Notes under the pieces: generated by a model | Told to the model about the DNA's origin: nothing | Databases searched by the model: none | What the model saw: only the letters and a program-made list of their open reading frames with translations | In this document: one piece after another, positions 2,946-42,352 of the stretch | How positions within the stretch are numbered: the stretch's first letter is position 1 | Layout of the letters: each line of letters starts with the position of its first letter | Program-made: the position numbers and the translations under genes | Source of the DNA: a virus | Taxonomy: Duplodnaviria; Heunggongvirae; Uroviricota; Caudoviricetes | IMG/VR virus record: IMGVR_UViG_2703718845_000002 | Coordinates: 1 to 42,999 of that record | Strand: one strand, 5' to 3' | Length of the DNA: 42,999 bases

Positions 2946-5417
2946 TTACGGATAAATCGAGTCCGAATACTCTGTAAGGGAAAGAGTTTGAGTATCGTCA
3001 CCATTTGGCTTGGCGCTATCGACGCGCCAGATTGTGGAGTTCAGTTCCGAGTCGGTAGCGATGAAATACCGGCTTGGGTTTTGTACCGTGCTGCGGTCAT
3101 AAATATTCAGATCGAATGTGTCGGCTGCAGCCTGAAATGCTTTTGGCTTGCCGCTTACCGGATAAGCTCGCCAGCGCCCGCGGTAATTGCCGAGGCTGTC
3201 GGTCATCACTACCCACATATCGCCGAGTGAAAAGTCGATACGCTCTGACGTCGAGAACACATCCCCGGAGCGTCCGGTGATGTATCCAGTCTGCTGCGCG
3301 TTGTCGTACATGTCCGGACACTGAACCACCGTACCGCGCACCACCTGCGTCGACTCCAGCACTTTCACTGTCATGGTCAGGCGTGAGTAGAGGATTTTCC
3401 TCGCCTCAAGCCAGGCCCGATCGGTTGCCTGATTGGCGTTGCGGCAGCCGTCCAGGCTGATCTGCATCGCGTTAACAGTAGCGTCGGAAACTTCACTTAT
3501 TCCGGAGGTGCCCACGTTTAGGTATATGTAGGTCTTTTTGTTAGTTGAAGGGTCGACGTAGTCGAGCGTCACGCCGTCATACCCACCAGGTAAAGACATT
3601 TTCCATGACAACTTGTAATCTTCCCAGAACATATTCGAACGGGCGAAAACCGCATCTGGGTTAGAAACCCTTTCATCACGCCAGAATGTAAGAACATCAC
3701 CGATCCAGTTAAAACTAACGCGAGCTACGTTACAGATAGTCTGTATTCGCTCACCTAGCGGCTGATTTTCATCGGAAAATGTCCAGTCAAAATAACCAAG
3801 CTGAGCATCTGGCAGCGAGTCTTTAATGGCGTAAAGCGAAGGTAAATCAAGCCTGGATGGATCCTGTTTGCCAATGATCACCCACTCATGTAGTACGGCG
3901 TCAGCAAATGACCTGCTGGGCCGCAATGCAAAGTCAATGCCGCTTGACGTCCATGATATGACCTTCCTCTGCACCAGACAGTTATATTTACGATCTGACG
4001 CTACAGTCTGTGTTTCCGTCTGTCTGACAGTGACCCTGACAATTGTGTCATCGGTATATACTACGTTTTTACGGATGGTTACAGCATGCGCGCCGGACAA
4101 ATACAGTACTGAGTTGCTGGCCGAGTTATTGGTTCGCTCAGCTCTAAAGGCATAACGTCCAAAACCCGCCACAGGTGTTATTTTGTATGTCCGGTAAATG
4201 TAATCCTGATTGCCTCCATCGTTGTGCACGTTTACATCAATGCTCTCTTCGGTACCGGGTATCTGGTTGTTATCGGTGTCGACCTGCCACCATGTGATAC
4301 GGGCAGGCCCGTCATATCCGCCAGCTTCATTCGCGTAGAGGTGCACCCAAAGCTGATCACCAGGGAGCGCCGCAAAAAATGGCCCAACCGCAATAGTCGA
4401 ATACTGAGTCAGCGTGAAAAGAGTGCTGTTTACCGTGGCGTCTGCTGGCAATCCCTCAAAGTCTGGACCAGACAAATAGTTAAACCAAAACTCATAGAAT
4501 TGTTGCGGATCGATAAGTGTCCCATCATCTGATAGCGCAGAGTTAAACAAACTAGCAGATACATTGATGTTTTTTGTTACCAGCCCACTGGCTGTATTAT
4601 ATGACACATTTACAGTGATAGTGACCGAAAATGGTTTTGGAGAGTCATAGAAAACATCAAACTCATTTTGTTTTTCAATTTTTGCATAAAACTGGCCTCC
4701 AGCGAAACTACCAGCCAGCAAATTATTCGTCGTGGCTTGATTAACGATATTTGATGTCTGCTCGTTGGTGCCAGGAAGCTCCTGCCCATCAACATCGTCA
4801 AAGGCATATCCCTGAATAATCTCTGGGATTACCGTGCCTGGATGATAAACTTCATAGCTGGCGCCGGCCATAGCTACCAGAGAAGATTCGGAATAACGTA
4901 CTGATGAAATATTGTAGTGTCCATAGCCTATCTCCATCCACTCTGTAACCATTTTATTATTACTGATGTATTCAAACATCGATTCCTGTATGAGGTCTGG
5001 ATAGGCTCGTACTTGACCATAAATATTCGGTCTCCCTTTATATAGACGGGCCCGGTTAGTCTGCTGGGTGACATCATTGTTAGGCGACTCACCAGTTGCA
5101 ACAGAAACGCCTCCGGATTTTGGTGCAAGACCGAGCAATTTCATTGCGCCAGAGAGAATTTTTGTGACCGGTCGTAATATGGTGTTGATCAGTTTCCCTA
5201 CCCCACCCTCTGGCTGATCGAATATAAGGACTACATCATTTCTGCACAGCGGATAAGTTATCTCGAAGTCGTCATCAAGTTCTCTGCCGTTAAGCTTAAC
5301 TACCACATCATTGTGCAAATTCAGAGAATCAAGTAACTCAGCTAGCGGCGTTCCTTCCTCCGCAACTCCACGCTGCTTTGGCGCGCCAGGAAGGCGCTGT
5401 AATTCATATCGAACCAT
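2946..5417 (-). CDS. Central tail fiber / host specificity protein (lambda J-like position)
   Basis: Large ORF after the K-like gene; track start at 5495 is GTG, in-frame ATG at 5417 has a GGAG SD and overlaps the upstream stop (5404..5406). Confidence 0.7.
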   Translation of the reverse strand: MVRYELQRLPGAPKQRGVAEEGTPLAELLDSLNLHNDVVVKLNGRELDDDFEITYPLCRNDVVLIFDQPEGGVGKLINTILRPVTKILSGAMKLLGLAPKSGGVSVATGESPNNDVTQQTNRARLYKGRPNIYGQVRAYPDLIQESMFEYISNNKMVTEWMEIGYGHYNISSVRYSESSLVAMAGASYEVYHPGTVIPEIIQGYAFDDVDGQELPGTNEQTSNIVNQATTNNLLAGSFAGGQFYAKIEKQNEFDVFYDSPKPFSVTITVNVSYNTASGLVTKNINVSASLFNSALSDDGTLIDPQQFYEFWFNYLSGPDFEGLPADATVNSTLFTLTQYSTIAVGPFFAALPGDQLWVHLYANEAGGYDGPARITWWQVDTDNNQIPGTEESIDVNVHNDGGNQDYIYRTYKITPVAGFGRYAFRAERTNNSASNSVLYLSGAHAVTIRKNVVYTDDTIVRVTVRQTETQTVASDRKYNCLVQRKVISWTSSGIDFALRPSRSFADAVLHEWVIIGKQDPSRLDLPSLYAIKDSLPDAQLGYFDWTFSDENQPLGERIQTICNVARVSFNWIGDVLTFWRDERVSNPDAVFARSNMFWEDYKLSWKMSLPGGYDGVTLDYVDPSTNKKTYIYLNVGTSGISEVSDATVNAMQISLDGCRNANQATDRAWLEARKILYSRLTMTVKVLESTQVVRGTVVQCPDMYDNAQQTGYITGRSGDVFSTSERIDFSLGDMWVVMTDSLGNYRGRWRAYPVSGKPKAFQAAADTFDLNIYDRSTVQNPSRYFIATDSELNSTIWRVDSAKPNGDDTQTLSLTEYSDSIYP

Positions 5418-5799
5418 GCACCATATACTCCACGCGGCTGTATACTTTAAGAAGCGCCAGCGGGTTGTCGCTGCGCACGAAACCAAACTCCCCACGGGAA
5501 TGCAGGCACTTAACGGGGCTTGTCATTACGCCAATATGCGCCGGGACTTCACCACGATAGAAAACCGCAATGCAACCCGACACCGCTGCTGGTATCGTTC
5601 GCCAGTGCTCCACCTCCTGCTCATGGCAAGTAATGAAGTCAGCCCCGGCTTCATACGCTGGAATATGGTGTAACTCAAGTCCCAGCACATGCCGGTAATA
5701 CAGAACAACCAGCGCCCAACAATCCATCGATCCAAAACTGCAGGAGCGGTTAGCCCACGGCTTGCCGGTAACAAGCCGGATAAATTCGTCTTGCGTCAT
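5404..5799 (-). CDS. Tail assembly protein, NlpC/P60 peptidase-like (lambda K-like)
   Basis: 131 aa with Cys (SMDCWALV) and His (PAHIGV) in NlpC/P60-like arrangement; ATGA overlap with upstream gene at 5796..5799. Confidence 0.7.
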   Translation of the reverse strand: MTQDEFIRLVTGKPWANRSCSFGSMDCWALVVLYYRHVLGLELHHIPAYEAGADFITCHEQEVEHWRTIPAAVSGCIAVFYRGEVPAHIGVMTSPVKCLHSRGEFGFVRSDNPLALLKVYSRVEYMVHGSI

Positions 5800-6266
5800 G
5801 AAGTTTTCAGTCCGGGATAAAGTTCTGTTGTGTAAATAATCGGGTTGGCGAGCGTCAAAGGGTTGGTGAACCCGGCGTCAACCGTCACATTGTTTGCGTC
5901 AGCAGAGATATCACTCACATACAGCGTCCAGTCTTTCAGTGACGCCGTGTCACCAATCGCATTCCACTGCTGATACAGGCACTTTATCGGCGTCATGCGC
6001 GCCGCCCCGCGCCAGCTTTTCAGTGTCTGCCGGACATGTTCCGTCGCGGCGACAAAAGTGATCGTCATGGATATGACTGCCGTTCCGTCCTGCGCCGGCT
6101 CGGTCACGCTGAACCGCGCAGGCTCGAACGAGTTTCCGCCAAACGTCGCCGGGCGAAACAGGTTATTGACCACCCGGTAATAACCAAACGCAGGGTGATA
6201 AAACTCCACCGTCTGTTTGATGTCGCTTGCCGGCCGCCGCTCCTTCCACTCTCTCAATGTCGGCAT
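5796..6266 (-). CDS. Minor tail protein
   Basis: 156 aa, translationally coupled to neighbours on both sides, located between tape measure and K-like gene. Confidence 0.6.
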   Translation of the reverse strand: MPTLREWKERRPASDIKQTVEFYHPAFGYYRVVNNLFRPATFGGNSFEPARFSVTEPAQDGTAVISMTITFVAATEHVRQTLKSWRGAARMTPIKCLYQQWNAIGDTASLKDWTLYVSDISADANNVTVDAGFTNPLTLANPIIYTTELYPGLKTS

Positions 6267-6757
6267 TAGTCAGCCCTCGGCATAACTTCGGTGATCAGGT
6301 AATCCAGCCAGTATCCGTAGCCAGGCTGGGCCTCAACAATCCAGTCGTCGTAATCTTCAGTAATGTCCTCGATACCATTGCTGATAACCGTTGCGGTCCA
6401 GGTGACAATGTTGCCGTTTTTGCTGGTCTGCACCGGCATGTCGACGAAATGCAGCGTCTGCTGCTGCACGCCCTGCGTATCACCCAGGTCGATCGGCATC
6501 TGGAACCAGTTGCGCCCGCGGTCGCAATATGTTGGCGAGCGAAGCCACGACTTAAACCGCTCGGCCTGGGCAAGCGTGAATATCCACTGCAGCGTCCATG
6601 TCGCTTTAAGGTCCGTAGTGATCGGCGTGATTATCAATGGACCGACTGCCGTCTGCGTCGTCTGCCAGGCTGTATCCTGCGTCATGTTCTGATCGGCACG
6701 CTGGGGCAGTGGCAGGAACGGAGGGTATTGAACTGTTGCCACGTTTCCTCCGGGCAT
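6266..6757 (-). CDS. Minor tail protein
   Basis: 163 aa, ATG at 6757; position between tape measure and distal tail genes; a hairpin plus U-run lies immediately upstream, leaving no room for a normal SD. Confidence 0.55.
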   Translation of the reverse strand: MPGGNVATVQYPPFLPLPQRADQNMTQDTAWQTTQTAVGPLIITPITTDLKATWTLQWIFTLAQAERFKSWLRSPTYCDRGRNWFQMPIDLGDTQGVQQQTLHFVDMPVQTSKNGNIVTWTATVISNGIEDITEDYDDWIVEAQPGYGYWLDYLITEVMPRAD

Positions 6758-6778
6758 AAAAAATGCCGCGGCTGCGGC
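6758..6778 (-). terminator. Intrinsic terminator-like hairpin (minus strand)
   Basis: Minus-strand RNA GCCGC-AGCC-GCGGC followed by A + U6, ending at the ATG of the minor tail gene. Confidence 0.5.
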
Positions 6779-6855
6779 ACTGATCTTTTATCAGGATGTT
6801 ACTAAATGTGTCTCGCTGATACTGTGTATTTTTCACACACAGCAAGAGAGGTCAT

Positions 6856-7119
6856 ATGTCTTACATTCACAGCAGAGAACATGCTGATCATGGCGATGTC
6901 ATCAGCATTCATTGCTCTCATCAAATTAACGTACTGGTTCTGGATGATACCAATTACTCTAAGTATCGTTCGGGGCGGCAATGCACATATTACGGAGGGT
7001 TTTACACTAGATTTCCCGCTAATATAGCTGTTCCTCACTCTGGCTACTGGAATGTCGTGCTGGCCCTTCCTCCCGGCCATCGAGCTAATATCCAGTACTC
7101 AATCAATATCATCCGGTAA
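6856..7119 (+). CDS. Hypothetical protein (AT-rich moron cassette, plus strand)
   Basis: ATG at 6856 preceded by AGAGAGG SD 4 nt upstream; 87 aa; AT-rich; opposite orientation to all flanking tail genes; 3' end overlaps the convergent ORF 7099..7278 by 21 nt. Confidence 0.35.
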   Translation: MSYIHSREHADHGDVISIHCSHQINVLVLDDTNYSKYRSGRQCTYYGGFYTRFPANIAVPHSGYWNVVLALPPGHRANIQYSINIIR

Positions 7120-7278
7120 ATTTAGCTGACCTTTTGCCTGAAATAGGGATTCTTCAAGGGCGGCAATGATCTTCTGCTGTGTGCCGTCCCTTAAATAACC
7201 TACCGACGCCATCCCCTCCTGTTTATCGCTGTCGCGGTACCAGATAACCTCGCCATTAACTTCGATTGCTACTTTCAT
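7099..7278 (-). CDS. Hypothetical small protein (moron cassette)
   Basis: Track ORF 7099..7287 begins with GTG; in-frame ATG at 7278 has a GGGTGA SD and sits just after the terminator U-run; 59 aa (MKVAIEVNGEVIWYRDSDKQ...). Confidence 0.4.
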   Translation of the reverse strand: MKVAIEVNGEVIWYRDSDKQEGMASVGYLRDGTQQKIIAALEESLFQAKGQLNLPDDID

Positions 7279-7292
7279 TATGTTCACCCATT

Positions 7293-7313
7293 AAAAAACC
7301 CGCCGGAGCGGGC
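7293..7313 (-). terminator. Rho-independent terminator downstream of tape measure gene
   Basis: Minus-strand RNA GCCCGC-UCCG-GCGGG followed by U6; near-identical copy of the hairpin at 9942..9962. Confidence 0.7.
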
Positions 7314-7318
7314 TTGGT

Positions 7319-9925
7319 TTAGTAAGTGGCTTGCGCTTTGCGGCTTAGTCCAAATGTCTGCTGCATCTGAGAGGATACCGGGCCGCCTCTTTCCATGTCG
7401 GTGATCAGCAAGTCCACAACTGCACTACCGTCCTGCATGTAGCCGTTGGCACTCTGTAAGGTGGCACCGGTAGACTGGTTGATGACGTTCACCTGCACGC
7501 TAATCCCTCCTCCTGACTGCATATCCTTATTGCTGATGACCTTCCCGTTATCGCCGGGGATCATGTACTGCTTGCCGGTGCTGGCCTGGTAAATCTCTGG
7601 CTTACCTTTCTCGCCTACCTGATACAGGCCGCCGGCTGATACCGGACCGCCGTTGTAGCGTGCGCCGGCAAGCGCAAGCCCGTTAGCCAGTCCCACCGTC
7701 GAACTGATACCAGCTGCAGCCGGGCCAGCGTTAGCACCGAACGAGGCGAGCGATGCCATAGCGGCCGCCGGAGCCCAGGCTGAAGCGGTAGTTGCCGCCA
7801 GTCCGACTGATGTCGCCACCGATGCGGCACCGAGCGTCTGACCGAGAATGTAGTTTTTCAGCGCTTCGACGCCAACCTGGACAATGCTGTTGATCACGCT
7901 GTTCAGGATGGTGTTGCCGAGCGACCGCATTGCCTCCTGCGCTGACATTGTGCCGGTTAGCAGACCGGTGATCGCATTGGAGGCATTCCCGCTAAACGCA
8001 TCCACCGCACTCGTCAGCATGTTATAGCCGAGGCTCTGCTGGCTGAGGATTTCCCATTGAGCTGCGATCCGCTGCTGCTCATATTGCCGGTCAGCGGCAT
8101 TTTTCAGCGCCAAGGCATTCTCATGAGCGAGAACCCCTTGCTGCTCAAACTGCTGAATCAGCGCCAGCTCCTGCGCGTGCTGGTTAGCCAGTTGCTGCAC
8201 CGGGTCAACTTCGCCAAGTGCCTGCTGGGTTGGGTTAACCACCTGCTGCGCGCGTATTTTGGCAAGGTTGGCCTGATGCTGCTGCTCCATCTGCTCAGTG
8301 GCTGCGTTGTATTCCTGCAGATCTATCTTCCCGGCGTTCAGCGCCGCTTTCAGGTTCTGCATGGATTCAGCGTAGGATTTATTCTCAGCCTGTTCCGGAA
8401 TGGCATTAAGCGCCTCTGTTACCCCCTTCGCCGCTGCGGCTGCATCCCATGCGGCTGCTGCGTATTTGCCTGCTTCCTGGATTTGAGCCTGAGTAGCTGA
8501 TTTACCAAGAGACTGCTGCGCACGCAATATCGCCTGCTCACGGCTCAATTCCTGAGTTGAGTCCGCTGCAAGCTCAGACTGCTGGCGAAGGTTTTCGAGT
8601 TTTTGGGCAATAGAATCTGCGGTAGACGCCGACTGTTTCCCGGCTTTGTCGCTTTCCTTCCTCGCCTCCGTAACCCGATAGGTTTCTGCATATTCGTCCT
8701 GCAGCGCTTTTATTCGCTTAGGATCGGTCACCCCAGCATCAGCTGCATCATATTGGGCCTGAAGCCTGGCTCGCGCCTCGCCTTCAAGTTTGGCCAATGC
8801 AAGCCGGCGCTCAGAGTTTTGAACCAGCTTCTTGGTTGCGGCGTCATCGCCTTTGGTCGGAGGCGCTTTAAACTGGTTGCTTCCGGCGTCCTTCTGAGCC
8901 TTTGCTCGAATGTGGGCTATTTCCCCCTCGATCTGCTTCAGCTGCACTGCTGCCTGCGCCCTTCTGGCCTGAAAAACTGAGTCAGTTTCATACCATCTCT
9001 GGCCGTCTTTCAGCTCATTGTTCAGATCCTGCTGGAGCTTGATCAGCTTCGGCATTCTTGAAGAATCGCCGACATTGTTGTTGTAGTAATTGAGGTTATC
9101 CGCGACACTCTGCATCAATCCTGCAAGGGTCGTAGTCAGGCCTATTGCCTGGTTCAGGTCGTTAATGGCATTTTTGAAGGCCACATCGAGGCTGTTCTTG
9201 GCTCGATCAATGCTGACCGGCATTTTATCGAACTCTTCATTGACCGACTGCGACTGACGTTGAATGGCGTTCAGGGCATCCTGAGCCGTCAGTTTTCCTT
9301 CCAGCATTCTCTTGCGAAGATCGCCGATTGATATCCCCAACCCCGCTGCAATCTGGCGCGCAAGTTCAGGCATCTGCTCAAGAATAGAGTTGAACTCTTC
9401 AGCACGGACGATACCGCCAGAAATAGACTGGCCGAACTGCCGCAATGCGTTTGCCATTTCCTCAGTAGAGGACCCACCGATCGTGCCAATTTTTTGCAGT
9501 GTCGATGTCAACCCGAGAATTTGCGAGTTAGTGGCGCCAGTTTCCTTTAACGCTGTCGTTAGTGATTCCCATAACCTCTCAGTTTCTGACAGGCTATTAC
9601 CTGTTTGAGCCGCGATTGCAGACAGTGAGGCAAGTGTTTCTTTGGCCACGTCAATGCTGGGGCTTAGTCTGGCTATCCTCGCCTGGAGCGTAACCATCTC
9701 GTCGCCGATGGCGATAAGCTTCTTCGCTGCATCAATGGTGAAAGCAGCTGCAATGGCAACGCCAACTTTATTTAAAGCACCTTCAAACCGCCCGGCAGAT
9801 CGTGACGATTGCTCAAACTTGGCGTCCATTTGGTCAAGACGCTTATTAACCTGCTGCTGCGCTTGGATCAGGCCGGATACGTTAGCCTCAATGTCATAAT
9901 AAATTTCACCTGCTTTTTCTGCCAT
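7319..9925 (-). CDS. Tail tape measure protein
   Basis: 868 aa, long alpha-helical, A/Q/E-rich protein with Gly-rich C-terminus, between tail chaperone region and minor tail genes; ATG at 9925 with GGAG SD. Confidence 0.9.
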   Translation of the reverse strand: MAEKAGEIYYDIEANVSGLIQAQQQVNKRLDQMDAKFEQSSRSAGRFEGALNKVGVAIAAAFTIDAAKKLIAIGDEMVTLQARIARLSPSIDVAKETLASLSAIAAQTGNSLSETERLWESLTTALKETGATNSQILGLTSTLQKIGTIGGSSTEEMANALRQFGQSISGGIVRAEEFNSILEQMPELARQIAAGLGISIGDLRKRMLEGKLTAQDALNAIQRQSQSVNEEFDKMPVSIDRAKNSLDVAFKNAINDLNQAIGLTTTLAGLMQSVADNLNYYNNNVGDSSRMPKLIKLQQDLNNELKDGQRWYETDSVFQARRAQAAVQLKQIEGEIAHIRAKAQKDAGSNQFKAPPTKGDDAATKKLVQNSERRLALAKLEGEARARLQAQYDAADAGVTDPKRIKALQDEYAETYRVTEARKESDKAGKQSASTADSIAQKLENLRQQSELAADSTQELSREQAILRAQQSLGKSATQAQIQEAGKYAAAAWDAAAAAKGVTEALNAIPEQAENKSYAESMQNLKAALNAGKIDLQEYNAATEQMEQQHQANLAKIRAQQVVNPTQQALGEVDPVQQLANQHAQELALIQQFEQQGVLAHENALALKNAADRQYEQQRIAAQWEILSQQSLGYNMLTSAVDAFSGNASNAITGLLTGTMSAQEAMRSLGNTILNSVINSIVQVGVEALKNYILGQTLGAASVATSVGLAATTASAWAPAAAMASLASFGANAGPAAAGISSTVGLANGLALAGARYNGGPVSAGGLYQVGEKGKPEIYQASTGKQYMIPGDNGKVISNKDMQSGGGISVQVNVINQSTGATLQSANGYMQDGSAVVDLLITDMERGGPVSSQMQQTFGLSRKAQATY

Positions 9926-40530: not shown

Positions 40531-41186
40531 GCGAAAAATACTCTCTGATTTATGCCGATCCGCCATGGGCTTATGAGAACACAATCAGCAACGGCGCCGC
40601 AGTGGACCACTACTCGACGATGCGACTCATCGACCTGAAGCGTCTGCCAGTGTGGGAACTGGCTGCCGAAAACGCGGTGCTTGCGATGTGGTACACCGGC
40701 ACCCACAACCAGGAGGCGATCGAGCTGGCCGAGGCCTGGGGCTTTACGGTGCGCACGATGAAGGGCTTCACCTGGGTGAAGTTGAATCAGTTGGCTGAGC
40801 TGCGCATTACCAAGGCTCTGGCAGATGGAGATGTGACCGACTTTTACGACTTCCTCGACCTGTTGAATGCCGAGACGCGCATGAACGGTGGCAACCATAC
40901 CCGCGCCAATTCTGAAGACGTGCTGATCGCTACCCGCGGCGCCGGGCTGGAACGTAAGCACGCCGGCATTAAGCAGGTGGTCTACAGCCCGCTCGGCGCA
41001 CACAGCGAAAAACCGTGGGAAGTTCGCCACCGCCTAGAACTGCTCTACGGCGACGTGCCGCGGATTGAGCTGTTCAGTCGCAGCGCAGCGCCAGGCTGGA
41101 GCCACTGGGGCAACCAGTGCGCCACCGCTTCCGTTGAGCTGATCCCTGGCTGCGCCATCGACGTTGTGAAGGCGGAGGCAGCATGA
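40527..41186 (+). CDS. MT-A70 family N6-adenine DNA methyltransferase
   Basis: N-terminal LIYADPPWAY contains the DPPW catalytic motif; 219 aa. Confidence 0.8.
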   Translation: MSEKYSLIYADPPWAYENTISNGAAVDHYSTMRLIDLKRLPVWELAAENAVLAMWYTGTHNQEAIELAEAWGFTVRTMKGFTWVKLNQLAELRITKALADGDVTDFYDFLDLLNAETRMNGGNHTRANSEDVLIATRGAGLERKHAGIKQVVYSPLGAHSEKPWEVRHRLELLYGDVPRIELFSRSAAPGWSHWGNQCATASVELIPGCAIDVVKAEAA

Positions 41187-42352
41187 GCGCGGCAGCGTAC
41201 TACAACGAGATCGACCCATTCGCGGCGCAGTGGCTGCGTAACCTCATAGCCGCCGGGCATATCGCCCCGGGCGAAGTTGACGAACGGAGTATTGAAGATG
41301 TCACACCTGACGACCTCAGAGGATTTACCCAGTGCCACTTTTTCTCCGGTATCGGCGTCTGGTCCCATTCCCTCCGTCTCGCCGGATGGCCAGATGATCG
41401 CCCGGTCTGGACTGGCTCCTGCCCGTGCCAGCCTTTCAGCGCGGCAGGCAAAGGAGATGGGTTTGCTGACGAGCGGCACCTTTGGCCCCACTTCTTCCAT
41501 CTCATCAGCGAGCGCAGACCTCAGCATGTCTTTGGCGAACAGGTTGCAAGCGGTAACGCAAACACATGGTTCGACCTTGTACAAGCTGACCTGGAAGGAC
41601 TGGGATACGCCTTCGGGCTTGTGCCGTTTACGTCAGCGGGCATCGGTGCGCCGCACATCAGAGAGCGGGCCTACTGGGTGGCCAACGCCGACAGCGTCAT
41701 CAGTGACCGGCGCGGGAACATCCGGGCGTCAGGGCGGGATGAATATTCAAACAGCGGCGATGATGTCCGGCTGGCCGACTCCAACCACGATCGACAACAA
41801 CCAGGTCAGGGGGCTGGGTGCCGCTGCCAATGCGCCGAACAGGGGATCGACATTGGGAGGGGCGGCCAGAATGGCGGGCTGGGTAACGCCAACGTCGCGC
41901 GACTGGAAAGACTCGGCGGGAATGACGGCGCAGCGGGACGGGAAAGAGCGACTGGACCAGCTGCCGCGCCAGGCGTTCATGACGGGATGGCCAACACCGA
42001 CAACGAGCAACACTCGATCGCCATCAGTGGATGCGGCCATGAACATGTATCGACAGGACGGCAGCAAGACCCAGCAGCGTCTGCAGGACTTCGCGGGGAT
42101 TACCGGACCCTTGAGGTTAACGGTTTTTGGCGAGATGCGGACTGGCTCTTATGTCGAGATGGCAAATGGCGTCCAGTTGAACCCGGCACATTCCCGCTGG
42201 TTGATGGGGCTGCCGCACGCCTGGCACGAGTCGAGCCCGGGGTGGCAAGAGTGGCAAGCAGCAACCGCGTCTGCCGCCTGAAGGGCTACGGCAACGCCAT
42301 AAACGCCCAGGCAGCTGCGGCTTTCATTCGCGCTTATATGGGGGTCGCATGA
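41183..42352 (+). CDS. DNA cytosine-5 methyltransferase, with apparent reading-frame discontinuity in the target-recognition region
   Basis: Frame of 41183 carries motif I (FFSGIG), IV (SCPCQPFS), VI-like (FGEQV), VIII (HIRERAYWVA) and motif X-like GYGNAINAQAAAAFIRAYM, with ATGA coupling to the next gene; the middle of the gene shows conserved repeats only in the other open frame (41277..42281). Confidence 0.55.
   Translation: MSAAAYYNEIDPFAAQWLRNLIAAGHIAPGEVDERSIEDVTPDDLRGFTQCHFFSGIGVWSHSLRLAGWPDDRPVWTGSCPCQPFSAAGKGDGFADERHLWPHFFHLISERRPQHVFGEQVASGNANTWFDLVQADLEGLGYAFGLVPFTSAGIGAPHIRERAYWVANADSVISDRRGNIRASGRDEYSNSGDDVRLADSNHDRQQPGQGAGCRCQCAEQGIDIGRGGQNGGLGNANVARLERLGGNDGAAGRERATGPAAAPGVHDGMANTDNEQHSIAISGCGHEHVSTGRQQDPAASAGLRGDYRTLEVNGFWRDADWLLCRDGKWRPVEPGTFPLVDGAAARLARVEPGVARVASSNRVCRLKGYGNAINAQAAAAFIRAYMGVA

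Follow-up and report, generated by a model that had tools for sequence, protein, structure and literature searches.

A mobile cassette of two convergent, 3'-overlapping genes in the tail operon of a lambdoid Klebsiella prophage

Here, we describe an insertion in the tail operon of a Klebsiella prophage that is contained in a stretch of 42,999 nt (IMG/VR record IMGVR_UViG_2703718845_000002, Caudoviricetes; 'the window' below means this whole stretch). The window phage is lambdoid, with a Q antiterminator, lysis genes, a terminase and an O-type replication protein, and its late operon lies on the minus strand. Between the tape measure gene and the first distal-tail (minor tail) gene of this operon we found an AT-rich island that, judged from its sequence and its relatives, is a mobile two-gene accessory cassette (a probable 'moron') unrelated to tail assembly. 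The island holds a plus-strand open reading frame (ORF) of 87 aa, ORF87, which encodes a DUF1883 protein and runs against the operon, and a minus-strand ORF of 59 aa, ORF59, which encodes a small partner protein of an unnamed family. The two genes face each other and overlap at their 3' ends, and this convergent arrangement was found at every surveyed locus at which both families occur.

A preliminary description, made from the sequence of the window, had already singled out the island. Its observations are confirmed by our analysis, and its interpretation is partly supported. Both ORFs lie exactly where it had placed them (Table 1), ORF87 opposes the structural operon behind an AGAGAGG Shine-Dalgarno sequence, and the 3' ends overlap by exactly 21 nt. 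The island indeed interrupts the tail operon as an AT-rich segment: the fraction of G and C (GC) is 0.425–0.48 over positions 6700–7299 against 0.545–0.61 in the flanking genes. Likewise, the claim that the layout is unlike that of ordinary tail genes is in line with the comparison with related phages, in which the island behaves as a foreign insertion, absent from one relative (MK448233) and replaced by other cargo in others.

The comparison with relatives lacking the island, which had been proposed as a check, found MK448233 (L001) empty at the junction. In this relative the gap between the tape measure and minor tail genes measures about 40 nt (junction sequence gggcat-A8-ccgccgaagcggg-ttgggtttagtaag); it holds a single hairpin like the terminator T1 of the window and no gene from the minor tail start to the tape measure stop. 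The ends of the cassette are ambiguous by an A6 run that is present at both of its edges (6758–6763 and 7293–7298). A megablast search recovered ten Klebsiella phages with the same flanking genes and differing content at this junction. MK448231 and OK490416 carry an ORF of 81–82 aa encoding a hydrophobic product in place of the cassette, and MK714353 carries a divergent DUF1883 gene with a truncated ORF59. Based on the window and three of these comparisons (L001, L002 and L006), the junction between tape measure and minor tail genes appears to be a hot spot for cargo. In MK448231, the hydrophobic ORF is placed upstream of the T1-like hairpin.

Table 1. Coordinates of the cassette, its signals and neighbouring genes in the window
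Feature	Position	Strand	Basis or remark
Inserted cassette, ~535 bp	6764..7298		Cassette-less relative MK448233 (L001) and low GC
ORF87, standalone 87-aa DUF1883 beta-sandwich protein	6856..7119	+	Against late operon direction
ORF87 Shine-Dalgarno AGAGAGG	6845..6851	+	Read from sequence
Putative extended -10 element of ORF87, TGATACTGT	6817..6825	+	Motif TGnTAnnnT conserved between modules
ORF59, 59-aa protein, unnamed family	7099..7278	-	Same direction as late operon; ATG as in homologues
ORF59 Shine-Dalgarno GGGTGA	7284..7289	-	5 nt ahead of ATG at 7278; read from sequence
3' overlap, 21 nt, exact antisense codon register	7099..7119		Read from sequence
T1, intrinsic terminator after tape measure stop	7293..7313	-	Stem 7299–7312, U6 run 7298–7293
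T2, intrinsic terminator, cassette-borne	6752..6781	-	Stem 6781–6762, 8 pairs; U-run 6761–6752
Tape measure gene	7319..9925	-	Pfam TMP_3, E = 1.5e-51; phrog_1107
First distal-tail/virion gene	6266..6757	-	phrog_384, E = 2.5e-54
Further distal-tail genes	5796..6266, 5404..5799	-	phrog_396; NlpC/P60-like phrog_329
Q-type antiterminator gene	25453..25953	-	Pfam Phage_antitermQ (PF06530), E = 1.2e-21

Profile searches, also suggested in the preliminary description, assigned both small proteins to families. ORF87 matches Pfam DUF1883 (PF08980) over residues 1–86 of its 87 with 72.4 bits, the cut-off being 26 (E = 3.1e-20), and phrog_9211 with E = 3e-25. A profile of its family retrieved Atu1913, a structural genomics entry (PDB 2b1y, E = 4e-9), and no other credible PDB match. 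The AlphaFold2 (AF2) model of ORF87, with a predicted local distance difference test (pLDDT) score of 89, is a seven-stranded sandwich with one helix, in a fold like that of Atu1913. This fold is a generic binding jelly-roll, as in GOLD, PPC, PliG and CBM-like domains, and enzymatic features, pore-forming features and transmembrane segments are absent from DUF1883. DUF1883 is known as a predominant partner of bacterial TIR domains (PMC9153377). ORF87 shares the Pfam domain and the beta-sandwich with Atu1913 and the TIR-DUF1883 proteins; unlike them, the phage-type subfamily has motifs of its own (CSHQxNV, GGFY and WNVV), which are not retained in Atu1913, and it is standalone, not fused to an effector. 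ORF87 aligned by BLASTP with MrpB of Clostridioides difficile over residues 1–87 of both proteins, at 34% identity (E = 4e-21); the MrpA and MrpB sequences were rebuilt from the S8 Table of PMC12694794. By its sequence, ORF87 thus belongs to the MrpB-type standalone DUF1883 subfamily.

ORF59 matches phrog_21096 (E = 6.5e-37). Its homologues form 197–299 clusters at 90% identity, and its family comprises 222 representatives at 50% identity (E < 1e-3) in a library of 1.8 billion proteins. The mechanically called ORF extends further, to a GTG at 7287 (7099..7287). In the AF2 model of ORF59 (pLDDT 86), three short beta strands are followed by a helix ending at residue 52; residues 1–52 are the structured part, and residues 53–59, which are encoded by the overlap, form a low-confidence tail. 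No Pfam match was found at E <= 0.1 and no NCBIfam match at E <= 1. A sequence search of the PDB gave no credible match (best E = 0.085, a designed helical bundle), the model gave no fold match, its sole hit among viral predicted structures being its own truncated homologue, and neither sequence nor fold searches found a DNA-binding or known antitoxin fold. In NCBI and UniRef, members of the family (P0004, P0008, P0009 and others) are named 'Rrf2 family transcriptional regulator'. We rejected this name: Rrf2 proteins are far longer than 59 aa, neither Pfam nor NCBIfam supports the assignment, and the predicted fold differs from a winged helix, so that the label is probably a propagated misannotation.

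The two proteins form a pair of opposite charge, ORF59 being acidic with an isoelectric point (pI) of 4.4 (family median 4.9) and ORF87 basic with a pI of 8.7 (family median 9.0). In both families the maximal 19-residue Kyte-Doolittle score is at most 1.28, and there is no transmembrane-like segment in either. Using the Nei-Gojobori method on 66 pairs of diverged modules, we calculated the proportions of nonsynonymous (pN) and synonymous (pS) differences. The medians were pN 0.22 versus pS 0.82 for DUF1883, and pN 0.24 versus pS 0.73 for codons 1–50 of the partner, which lie outside the overlap; the ratio of the corresponding rates (dN/dS) was about 0.1–0.2 wherever dS was unsaturated. Membership in conserved families and purifying selection, with pN well below pS in each case, show the two ORFs to be genuine genes, and the possibility considered earlier, that they are mere non-coding spacer, does not hold for these homologous families.

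Some members of the partner family are longer: among P0232, P0238, P0246 (L162), P0245, P0247, P0249 and P0295, some have an N-terminal extension of about 190 aa or a C-terminal one of 90–150 aa. The extended partner P0232 (L162) converges on a DUF1883 gene with a 54-nt overlap.

Is the convergent layout a common feature of these gene pairs or an accident of the window? A DUF1883 profile yielded 49 loci in species-representative genomes and 80 in viral contigs, and exact-protein look-ups supplied further ones; all collected loci were scanned with hidden Markov models of both families. The partner was found at 123 of the 154 DUF1883 loci, and in all 123 the two genes are convergent, with not a single same-strand pair. 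The convergent, overlapping layout that had been highlighted in the preliminary description is therefore invariant among these loci and not an accident of the window, but the length of the overlap, 21 nt in the window, varies between loci. In prophages of Yersinia enterocolitica, for example, the 3' ends of a DUF1883 gene (87 aa) and of a convergent 62-aa gene likewise overlap by 21 nt, and the product of the latter is 28% identical to ORF59 (E = 6e-7). Across all loci, the overlap ranges from 12 to 60 nt and measures 21 nt (49 loci), 24 nt (33), 57 nt (16), 54 nt (8) or 60 nt (6), with a few other lengths; after dereplication to 34 clusters, 21 nt was found in 13, 57 nt in six and 54 nt in four.

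The main classes of overlap length are all multiples of three, and the antisense codon register is therefore fixed. In the window, the TCA codon for Ser82 of ORF87 is at the same time the TGA stop codon of ORF59, and the TAA stop codon of ORF87 is the TTA codon for Leu53 of ORF59. Ser82 is invariant in DUF1883, and one synonymous choice at this residue sets the overlap length: TCA places the partner stop there and gives the 21/24-nt overlap, and TCC, TCG or AGT let the partner run on for 11–13 codons more, which gives 54–60 nt. Across this variation, the conserved feature is the back-to-back abutment of the two genes, with neither spacing nor a terminator between them, and not the length of 21 nt.

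The pair is widespread. It was seen in Klebsiella, Serratia, Erwinia, Atlantibacter, Enterobacter and Citrobacter/Escherichia coli, in Yersinia, Xenorhabdus, Photorhabdus, Budvicia and Pseudomonas, and also in metagenome-assembled genomes (MAGs) assigned to Ignavibacteriota, Pyrinomonadaceae (Acidobacteria) and Pseudomonadota. Across the surveyed loci, its nearest co-oriented neighbours form about 42 family combinations. Two sites recur: one follows the tape measure gene, in Klebsiella and in other phage lineages with unrelated downstream genes, and the other lies directly after a CI-like or RacR-like repressor gene, as in Yersinia (S24-type CI) and in Rac-like prophages of E. coli and Citrobacter. 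Elsewhere, the module was found ahead of holin and terminase genes (a MAG prophage of Pseudomonadota) or after a gene of 485–489 aa upstream of the terminase (Enterobacter). In every gene table examined, the partner is co-oriented with the surrounding phage genes and the DUF1883 gene is opposed to them. One ORF59 allele (P0031) is indexed in over 3,400 data blocks of assemblies, practically all of them from Klebsiella and always in the order tape measure, ORF59, DUF1883, minor tail. The module is rare among isolated phage records (4 of 50,697), and the version of E. coli and Citrobacter (L149) was present in 14 of 5,426 complete E. coli genomes.

Some single loci depart from this picture. Most alphaproteobacterial DUF1883 loci are without the partner. 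In Bradyrhizobium sp. BWA-3-5 there are three near-identical DUF1883 copies, 52% identical to the query, two chromosomal and one on a plasmid (L036, L037 and L038); they share an identical downstream ORF and are without the partner, which hints that DUF1883 of Alphaproteobacteria moves in another context. On two viral contigs (L141 and L148, at about 5001–5310), DUF1883 converges directly on a 485-aa gene with no partner ORF, and in an Enterobacter prophage (L156) a gene of the same 485–489-aa family is followed by the partner and then by DUF1883; the former arrangement looks like a partner-deletion variant. The isolated Pseudomonas aeruginosa phage vB_Pae_U8 (L160, PP003920) has a DUF1883 gene at 3001–3267, in the interval from the terminase small subunit to the lysis and tail genes, and an unannotated convergent partner ORF at 3157–3423 on the minus strand, with a 111-nt overlap. 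In the Firmicutes phage Pd_22F of Paenibacillus (L161, MZ092003; 2941–3422), a divergent DUF1883 gene stands against the direction of its neighbours and converges, with a 4-nt overlap, on a 70–74-aa helical ORF unrelated to ORF59.

Within Klebsiella, the two genes vary together. Compared with the common Klebsiella type (L007 and L116), the window is 95–100% identical over 6580–6860 and 7220–7500, the latter flank including the first ~19 codons of ORF59. Between these constant flanks, identity falls to 37–85% in the coding region of DUF1883 and in the C-terminal two-thirds of ORF59. DUF1883 alleles at the same site are 98–100%, 90%, 64–66% and 45% identical to that of the window. Because both genes diverge inside constant flanks, DUF1883 alleles are exchanged jointly with the helix part of the partner. 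Such joint exchange fits cognate pairing or diversifying pressure; linkage alone could also yield it.

A different exchange was observed in KY271395 (L003, Klebsiella phage 2b LV-2017), of which positions 2040–2700 correspond to 6758–7318 of the window. Here a 70-aa zinc-ribbon ORF of the CxxC...CxxC type (MSEKFRIKLSCPDCGSEQF...) replaces DUF1883, and the N-terminus of ORF59 (residues 1–52) runs on into a 155-aa ORF antisense to it, which suggests that the plus-strand cargo behind the shared promoter region is exchangeable. Pfam scans of this zinc-ribbon ORF and of the extended partner proteins gave sub-threshold matches only.

How would the two genes be transcribed? Ahead of ORF87 we found a putative extended -10 element, from which a transcription start at about 6832 and a leader of about 25 nt (CACACACAGCAAGAGAGG) are predicted. 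The motif TGnTAnnnT recurs 38–42 nt ahead of the DUF1883 ATG in 12 of 33 dereplicated modules. These modules form four groups whose upstream sequences are unrelated apart from the element, which reads TGATACTGT (Klebsiella), TGGTATCTT or TGGTATCCT (Yersinia, Serratia and E. coli), TGATATGAT (L092) and TGGTAGTGT, TGCTAATGT, TGCTAGTGT or TGATAGTGT (Pseudomonas and MAGs). By our own estimate, about 0.5% of sequences would have TGnTAnnnT within a given 5-nt interval by chance. The conserved element supports an independent, still predicted, plus-strand transcription of ORF87. A generic promoter scan gave no match inside the cassette. For the partner, no conserved promoter is visible in the upstream regions; in 12 of 27 modules its gene comes after an intrinsic terminator, and otherwise it starts within some 20 nt of the upstream stop codon. 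The ATG of ORF59 lies just 13 nt beyond the U-run of T1 in the window, too close for a promoter of its own.

Two other leader elements were noticed ahead of DUF1883. In modules of the Erwinia, Enterobacter and Atlantibacter type (L021, L023, L098, L099, L101, L104 and L156), the extended -10 element is replaced by a block GAGGGATGGCTGATTACCTCT, 15–35 nt ahead of the ATG, with the potential to form a hairpin (AGAGG...CCTCT); it may serve as a translational operator or as another type of promoter. In modules from Yersinia, Serratia and E. coli (L015, L020, L105 and L083), an inverted repeat, CCACC-N9-GGTGG, lies 40–65 nt ahead of the ATG between a putative -35 element (TTTCCA) and the extended -10 element (TGGTATCTT), and it looks like an operator.

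The preliminary description had also placed hairpin terminators on both sides of the island. Both are present with their T-runs, but they are good terminators on the minus strand only, and the right one is not specific to the cassette. T1 has a folding energy of -14.7 kcal/mol, with z = -2.15 on the minus strand and z = -0.42 on the plus strand. A T1-like hairpin is found in L002 and also in the cassette-less MK448233, and T1 therefore predates the cassette. T2, at -13.7 kcal/mol, has z = -3.3 on the minus strand and z = -1.45 on the plus strand; along the minus strand it lies beyond ORF87 and its putative promoter, just ahead of the minor tail gene. A terminator on the partner strand, 72–150 nt from the DUF1883 start, was found in 13 of 30 dereplicated modules, with stems that are unrelated between groups. 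The 3-kb region around the cassette holds six terminator-like sites against 2.5 +/- 1.3 in shuffled sequences, and an Rfam scan of 6400–7700 at E <= 1 found no known RNA family. On the plus strand, T1 is the only hairpin downstream of ORF87, and it is weak there. Since no terminator lies between the two genes, each mRNA would be antisense to the other gene. As to the gene behind T2, its true start is probably the GTG at 6742, after GGAGG, and not the ATG at 6757; homologues are annotated from MATVQYPP. The ATG at 6757 falls within the U-run of T2.

Phage morons, as defined from comparisons of HK97 and lambda, are additional genes that bring along a promoter and a terminator of their own and sit where related phages have two neighbouring genes with nothing in between. 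The cassette resembles them in that it stands between genes adjacent in MK448233, has a lower GC content, a terminator of its own (T2) and a promoter-like element, and lies within a Q-antiterminated late operon. Three of four moron hallmarks were thus found, namely insertion between adjacent genes, an own terminator and a deviant base composition. Unlike a typical moron, the cassette consists of two genes face to face, one of which would depend on read-through, and the same unit recurs across phyla.

Based on this anatomy, we propose a model in which ORF87 and ORF59 are expressed reciprocally through antisense coupling, the two proteins bind each other, and the pair serves lysogenic conversion or exclusion. 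We consider this model about equally likely to be right or wrong as a whole. A sigma-70 extended -10 promoter of its own would drive ORF87 in the direction opposed to the operon, and the resulting transcript would run antisense through ORF59, meeting T1 as the first hairpin on the plus strand. ORF59, having no promoter of its own, would be made only when operon transcription reads through T1. Q-type antitermination lets late transcription pass terminators, and because the phage encodes Q, the late operon could read through both T1 and T2; in the window it would thus be Q-antiterminated late transcription that produces ORF59. The ORF59 transcript would cross the ORF87 gene and its promoter as antisense RNA and end at T2. 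In the prophage state, with the operon silent, ORF87 would be on and ORF59 off. In late lytic growth, with the operon active, ORF59 would be on, and promoter occlusion, polymerase collision or duplex RNA would silence ORF87. The antisense regulation put forward in the preliminary description is, in the same way, a reading of the anatomy of the locus.

At the protein level, we speculate that the acidic ORF59 binds the basic ORF87 and neutralises or redirects it, and that ORF87 is a cytoplasmic binding protein expressed in the lysogen which may act on a component of the host or of an incoming phage. The acidic/basic pair, the joint allele swaps and the pull-down of a small partner by MrpB hint at an interaction between ORF59 and ORF87. 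As to the function within this model, we lean towards exclusion or another defence-type lysogenic conversion because of the repressor-adjacent position, the moron sites and the turnover of alleles; this is a tentative choice, possible and yet on the improbable side. Among the functional readings we rank it first, an MrpAB-like modulation of the host next and an anti-defence decoy as least likely.

The predicted transcription recalls the excludons of Listeria, in which long antisense transcripts join divergent chromosomal operons of opposing function. Here, too, the predicted mRNA of one gene would run antisense across the opposed neighbour and its promoter; unlike the excludons, the cassette is mobile and about 0.5 kb in size, and its transcripts are predicted from sequence. 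A further-reaching version of the model is that the overlap itself is the working part of a new two-component prophage switch. The partner mRNA would double as a full-length antisense RNA against DUF1883, the module would flip between DUF1883-on and partner-on with transcription of the host operon, and the partner gene would supply an antidote made of both protein and RNA, a design present in several phyla, outside toxin-antitoxin types I to VIII, and serving phage exclusion or host control. We regard this version as doubtful.

Several observations weigh against the proposed reciprocal model. Expression and the behaviour of the proteins are predictions from sequence. With 3 of 6 matches besides the TG, the -10 hexamer of ORF87 (TACTGT) is weak, and a good -35 element is absent; moreover, the extended -10 element stands at that position in only about one-third of the dereplicated modules, and another third has a different conserved leader. 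At the repressor-adjacent sites of Yersinia and E. coli, the partner is predicted to be co-transcribed with cI in the lysogen, in the opposite phase from the window. Because the partner would be lysogen-expressed there, the switch would not be one of lysogeny versus lysis everywhere, but would rather follow whether the host operon is transcribed. L004, L107, L141 and L148 have DUF1883 without an intact partner, and L003 has the partner N-terminus without DUF1883. Since each gene is thus found without the other in intact form, the partnership is not obligatory. No model of a known or candidate defence protein in PADLOC-DB v2 matches either protein at E <= 1, and no homology links the partner to MrpA (hhalign probability 0.1% against partner profile A2, and no alignment with ORF59 by BLASTP).

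The rival that survives best is a dedicated anti-phage system of the defence, abortive-infection or toxin-antitoxin type, in which DUF1883 would be the sensor or effector, ORF59 the antidote, and the overlap a means of controlling the antidote like that of type I toxin-antitoxin loci. We consider it unlikely. It is in keeping with the location of the module in classic slots for prophage defence, both downstream of CI-like repressors and at terminator-bounded moron sites of late operons, with the replacement of DUF1883 alleles inside constant flanks as in an arms race, with the frequent fusion of DUF1883 to bacterial TIR domains (PMC9153377) and with the pairing of an acidic and a basic protein. 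However, the PADLOC search was empty for both proteins even at its permissive threshold, DUF1883 is a generic binding fold devoid of enzymatic, pore-forming or transmembrane features, and ORF59 has neither a DNA-binding nor a known antitoxin fold. Intact DUF1883 genes without an intact partner (L004, L141 and L148) argue against a lethal toxin, and the two genes never form a co-directional operon.

The repressor-adjacent slot is that of lambda rexAB, the accessory genes of the lambda immunity region. Like rexAB, the module lies downstream of, and is co-oriented with, a CI-like repressor gene in Yersinia and in Rac-like E. coli/Citrobacter prophages; it differs in that it has no relation to RexA or RexB in sequence or fold, one of its genes is antisense, and the copy of the window resides in the tail operon. 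The layout also resembles type I toxin-antitoxin loci with convergent 3'-overlapping RNAs (txpA/RatA, bsrG/SR4, fst RNAI/RNAII), which are frequent in prophages: the 3' ends are shared, no terminator separates the convergent units, and complementarity between the RNAs is forced. A classical type I system was nevertheless rejected, for the convergent 3' overlap is present but neither strand encodes a small hydrophobic toxin peptide; both encode conserved proteins with pN far below pS. A type II toxin-antitoxin system was rejected as well: the genes are never co-directional, neither has a Pfam match to a toxin, antitoxin or DNA-binding family or a match in PADLOC, and their co-occurrence is not strict. 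The folds of the pair, a binding sandwich (ORF87) and an orphan beta3-alpha unit (ORF59), are not those of known type II toxins and antitoxins.

Quite unlikely, in our view, is an MrpAB-like modulation of host physiology or cell division, in which the pair would act on MinD, MinC or FtsZ as do the prophage inhibitors Kil and DicB. In Rac-like prophages the module adjoins the repressor, a location in which division inhibitors such as Kil often occur. The homology of ORF87 to MrpB extends over the full length of both proteins, and the C. difficile pair has a documented function. CmrT-induced mrpA (81 aa) and mrpB (87 aa, DUF1883) suffice between them to elongate cells, roughen colonies and confer surface motility, and both are required for elongation and rough colonies. 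Pull-downs with MrpB recovered MrpA, MinD and further division proteins, and each of 212 complete C. difficile genomes retains the CmrT-regulated, co-transcribed mrpAB genes (PMC12694794, PLoS Pathog 2025). What the two systems have in common is a standalone 87-aa DUF1883 protein next to a small protein of beta strands and a C-terminal helix. However, it is MrpA, not MrpB, for which contact with MinD has been demonstrated, and the role of MrpB itself is called unclear (PMC12694794). ORF59 has no detectable similarity to MrpA, and mrpAB is a co-directional transcription unit on one strand and not a convergent pair on a mobile prophage cassette. By sequence and layout, the Klebsiella pair is therefore not an MrpAB system; the association of DUF1883 with a small partner carries over, and the link to MinD does not.

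Slightly less probable still is that the cassette consists of two functionally independent morons, whose overlap would be neutral tight packing inherited from one ancestral arrangement and void of regulatory meaning. The variation of the overlap from 12 to 60 nt with a synonymous serine codon, its location in the low-confidence tail of ORF59 past the helix, and the occurrence of either gene without the other are all compatible with such packing. On the other hand, the 123 co-occurrences are convergent and abutting without exception, across phyla and about 42 contexts, and no case of separation, inversion or an operon was found. Moreover, the pair moves as a unit with promoter and terminator, and the alleles of both genes are exchanged jointly.

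We find it very improbable that the standalone DUF1883 protein is an anti-defence decoy that poisons or titrates TIR-DUF1883 immune proteins of the host. TIR-DUF1883 is a predominant bacterial TIR architecture (PMC9153377) and DUF1883 alleles diversify rapidly; yet the putative sigma-70-type promoter, the moron sites and the repressor adjacency fit expression in the lysogen rather than in early infection, and the module resides in thousands of Klebsiella prophage copies. Finally, the readings as spacer DNA whose ORFs arose by chance, or as an aid to tail assembly such as a chaperone, have the position between the tape measure and distal tail genes as their sole support and can be dismissed; they are refuted by the conservation of both families under purifying selection, by close relatives with the same tail genes and no cassette, and by the presence of the same pair in the immunity, lysis and terminase regions of other phages.

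In the literature naming DUF1883 we found no work on phage defence, and the MrpAB study (PMC12694794) was the only functional one; searches for PF08980 and Atu1913 found no papers, and the cassette was not found in the literature on Klebsiella prophage morons at the tape measure gene. The cassette is very common in Klebsiella, and its small gene is mislabelled as Rrf2 or left unannotated. A pair of protein-coding genes that keeps a convergent, abutting layout across phyla and dozens of sites is rare, and the cassette offers a compact natural system for studying whether a portable device of gene regulation can be built on transcriptional interference or antisense pairing. The link to MrpB points to cooperation with a small partner as a general trait of standalone DUF1883 proteins. 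If the cassette does exclude other phages, it would be relevant to phage therapy against Klebsiella. The window phage carries other accessory functions in its early and late-regulatory regions, a C5 cytosine DNA methylase (41183–42352, plus strand) and a calcineurin-like phosphoesterase (26715–27383, minus strand).

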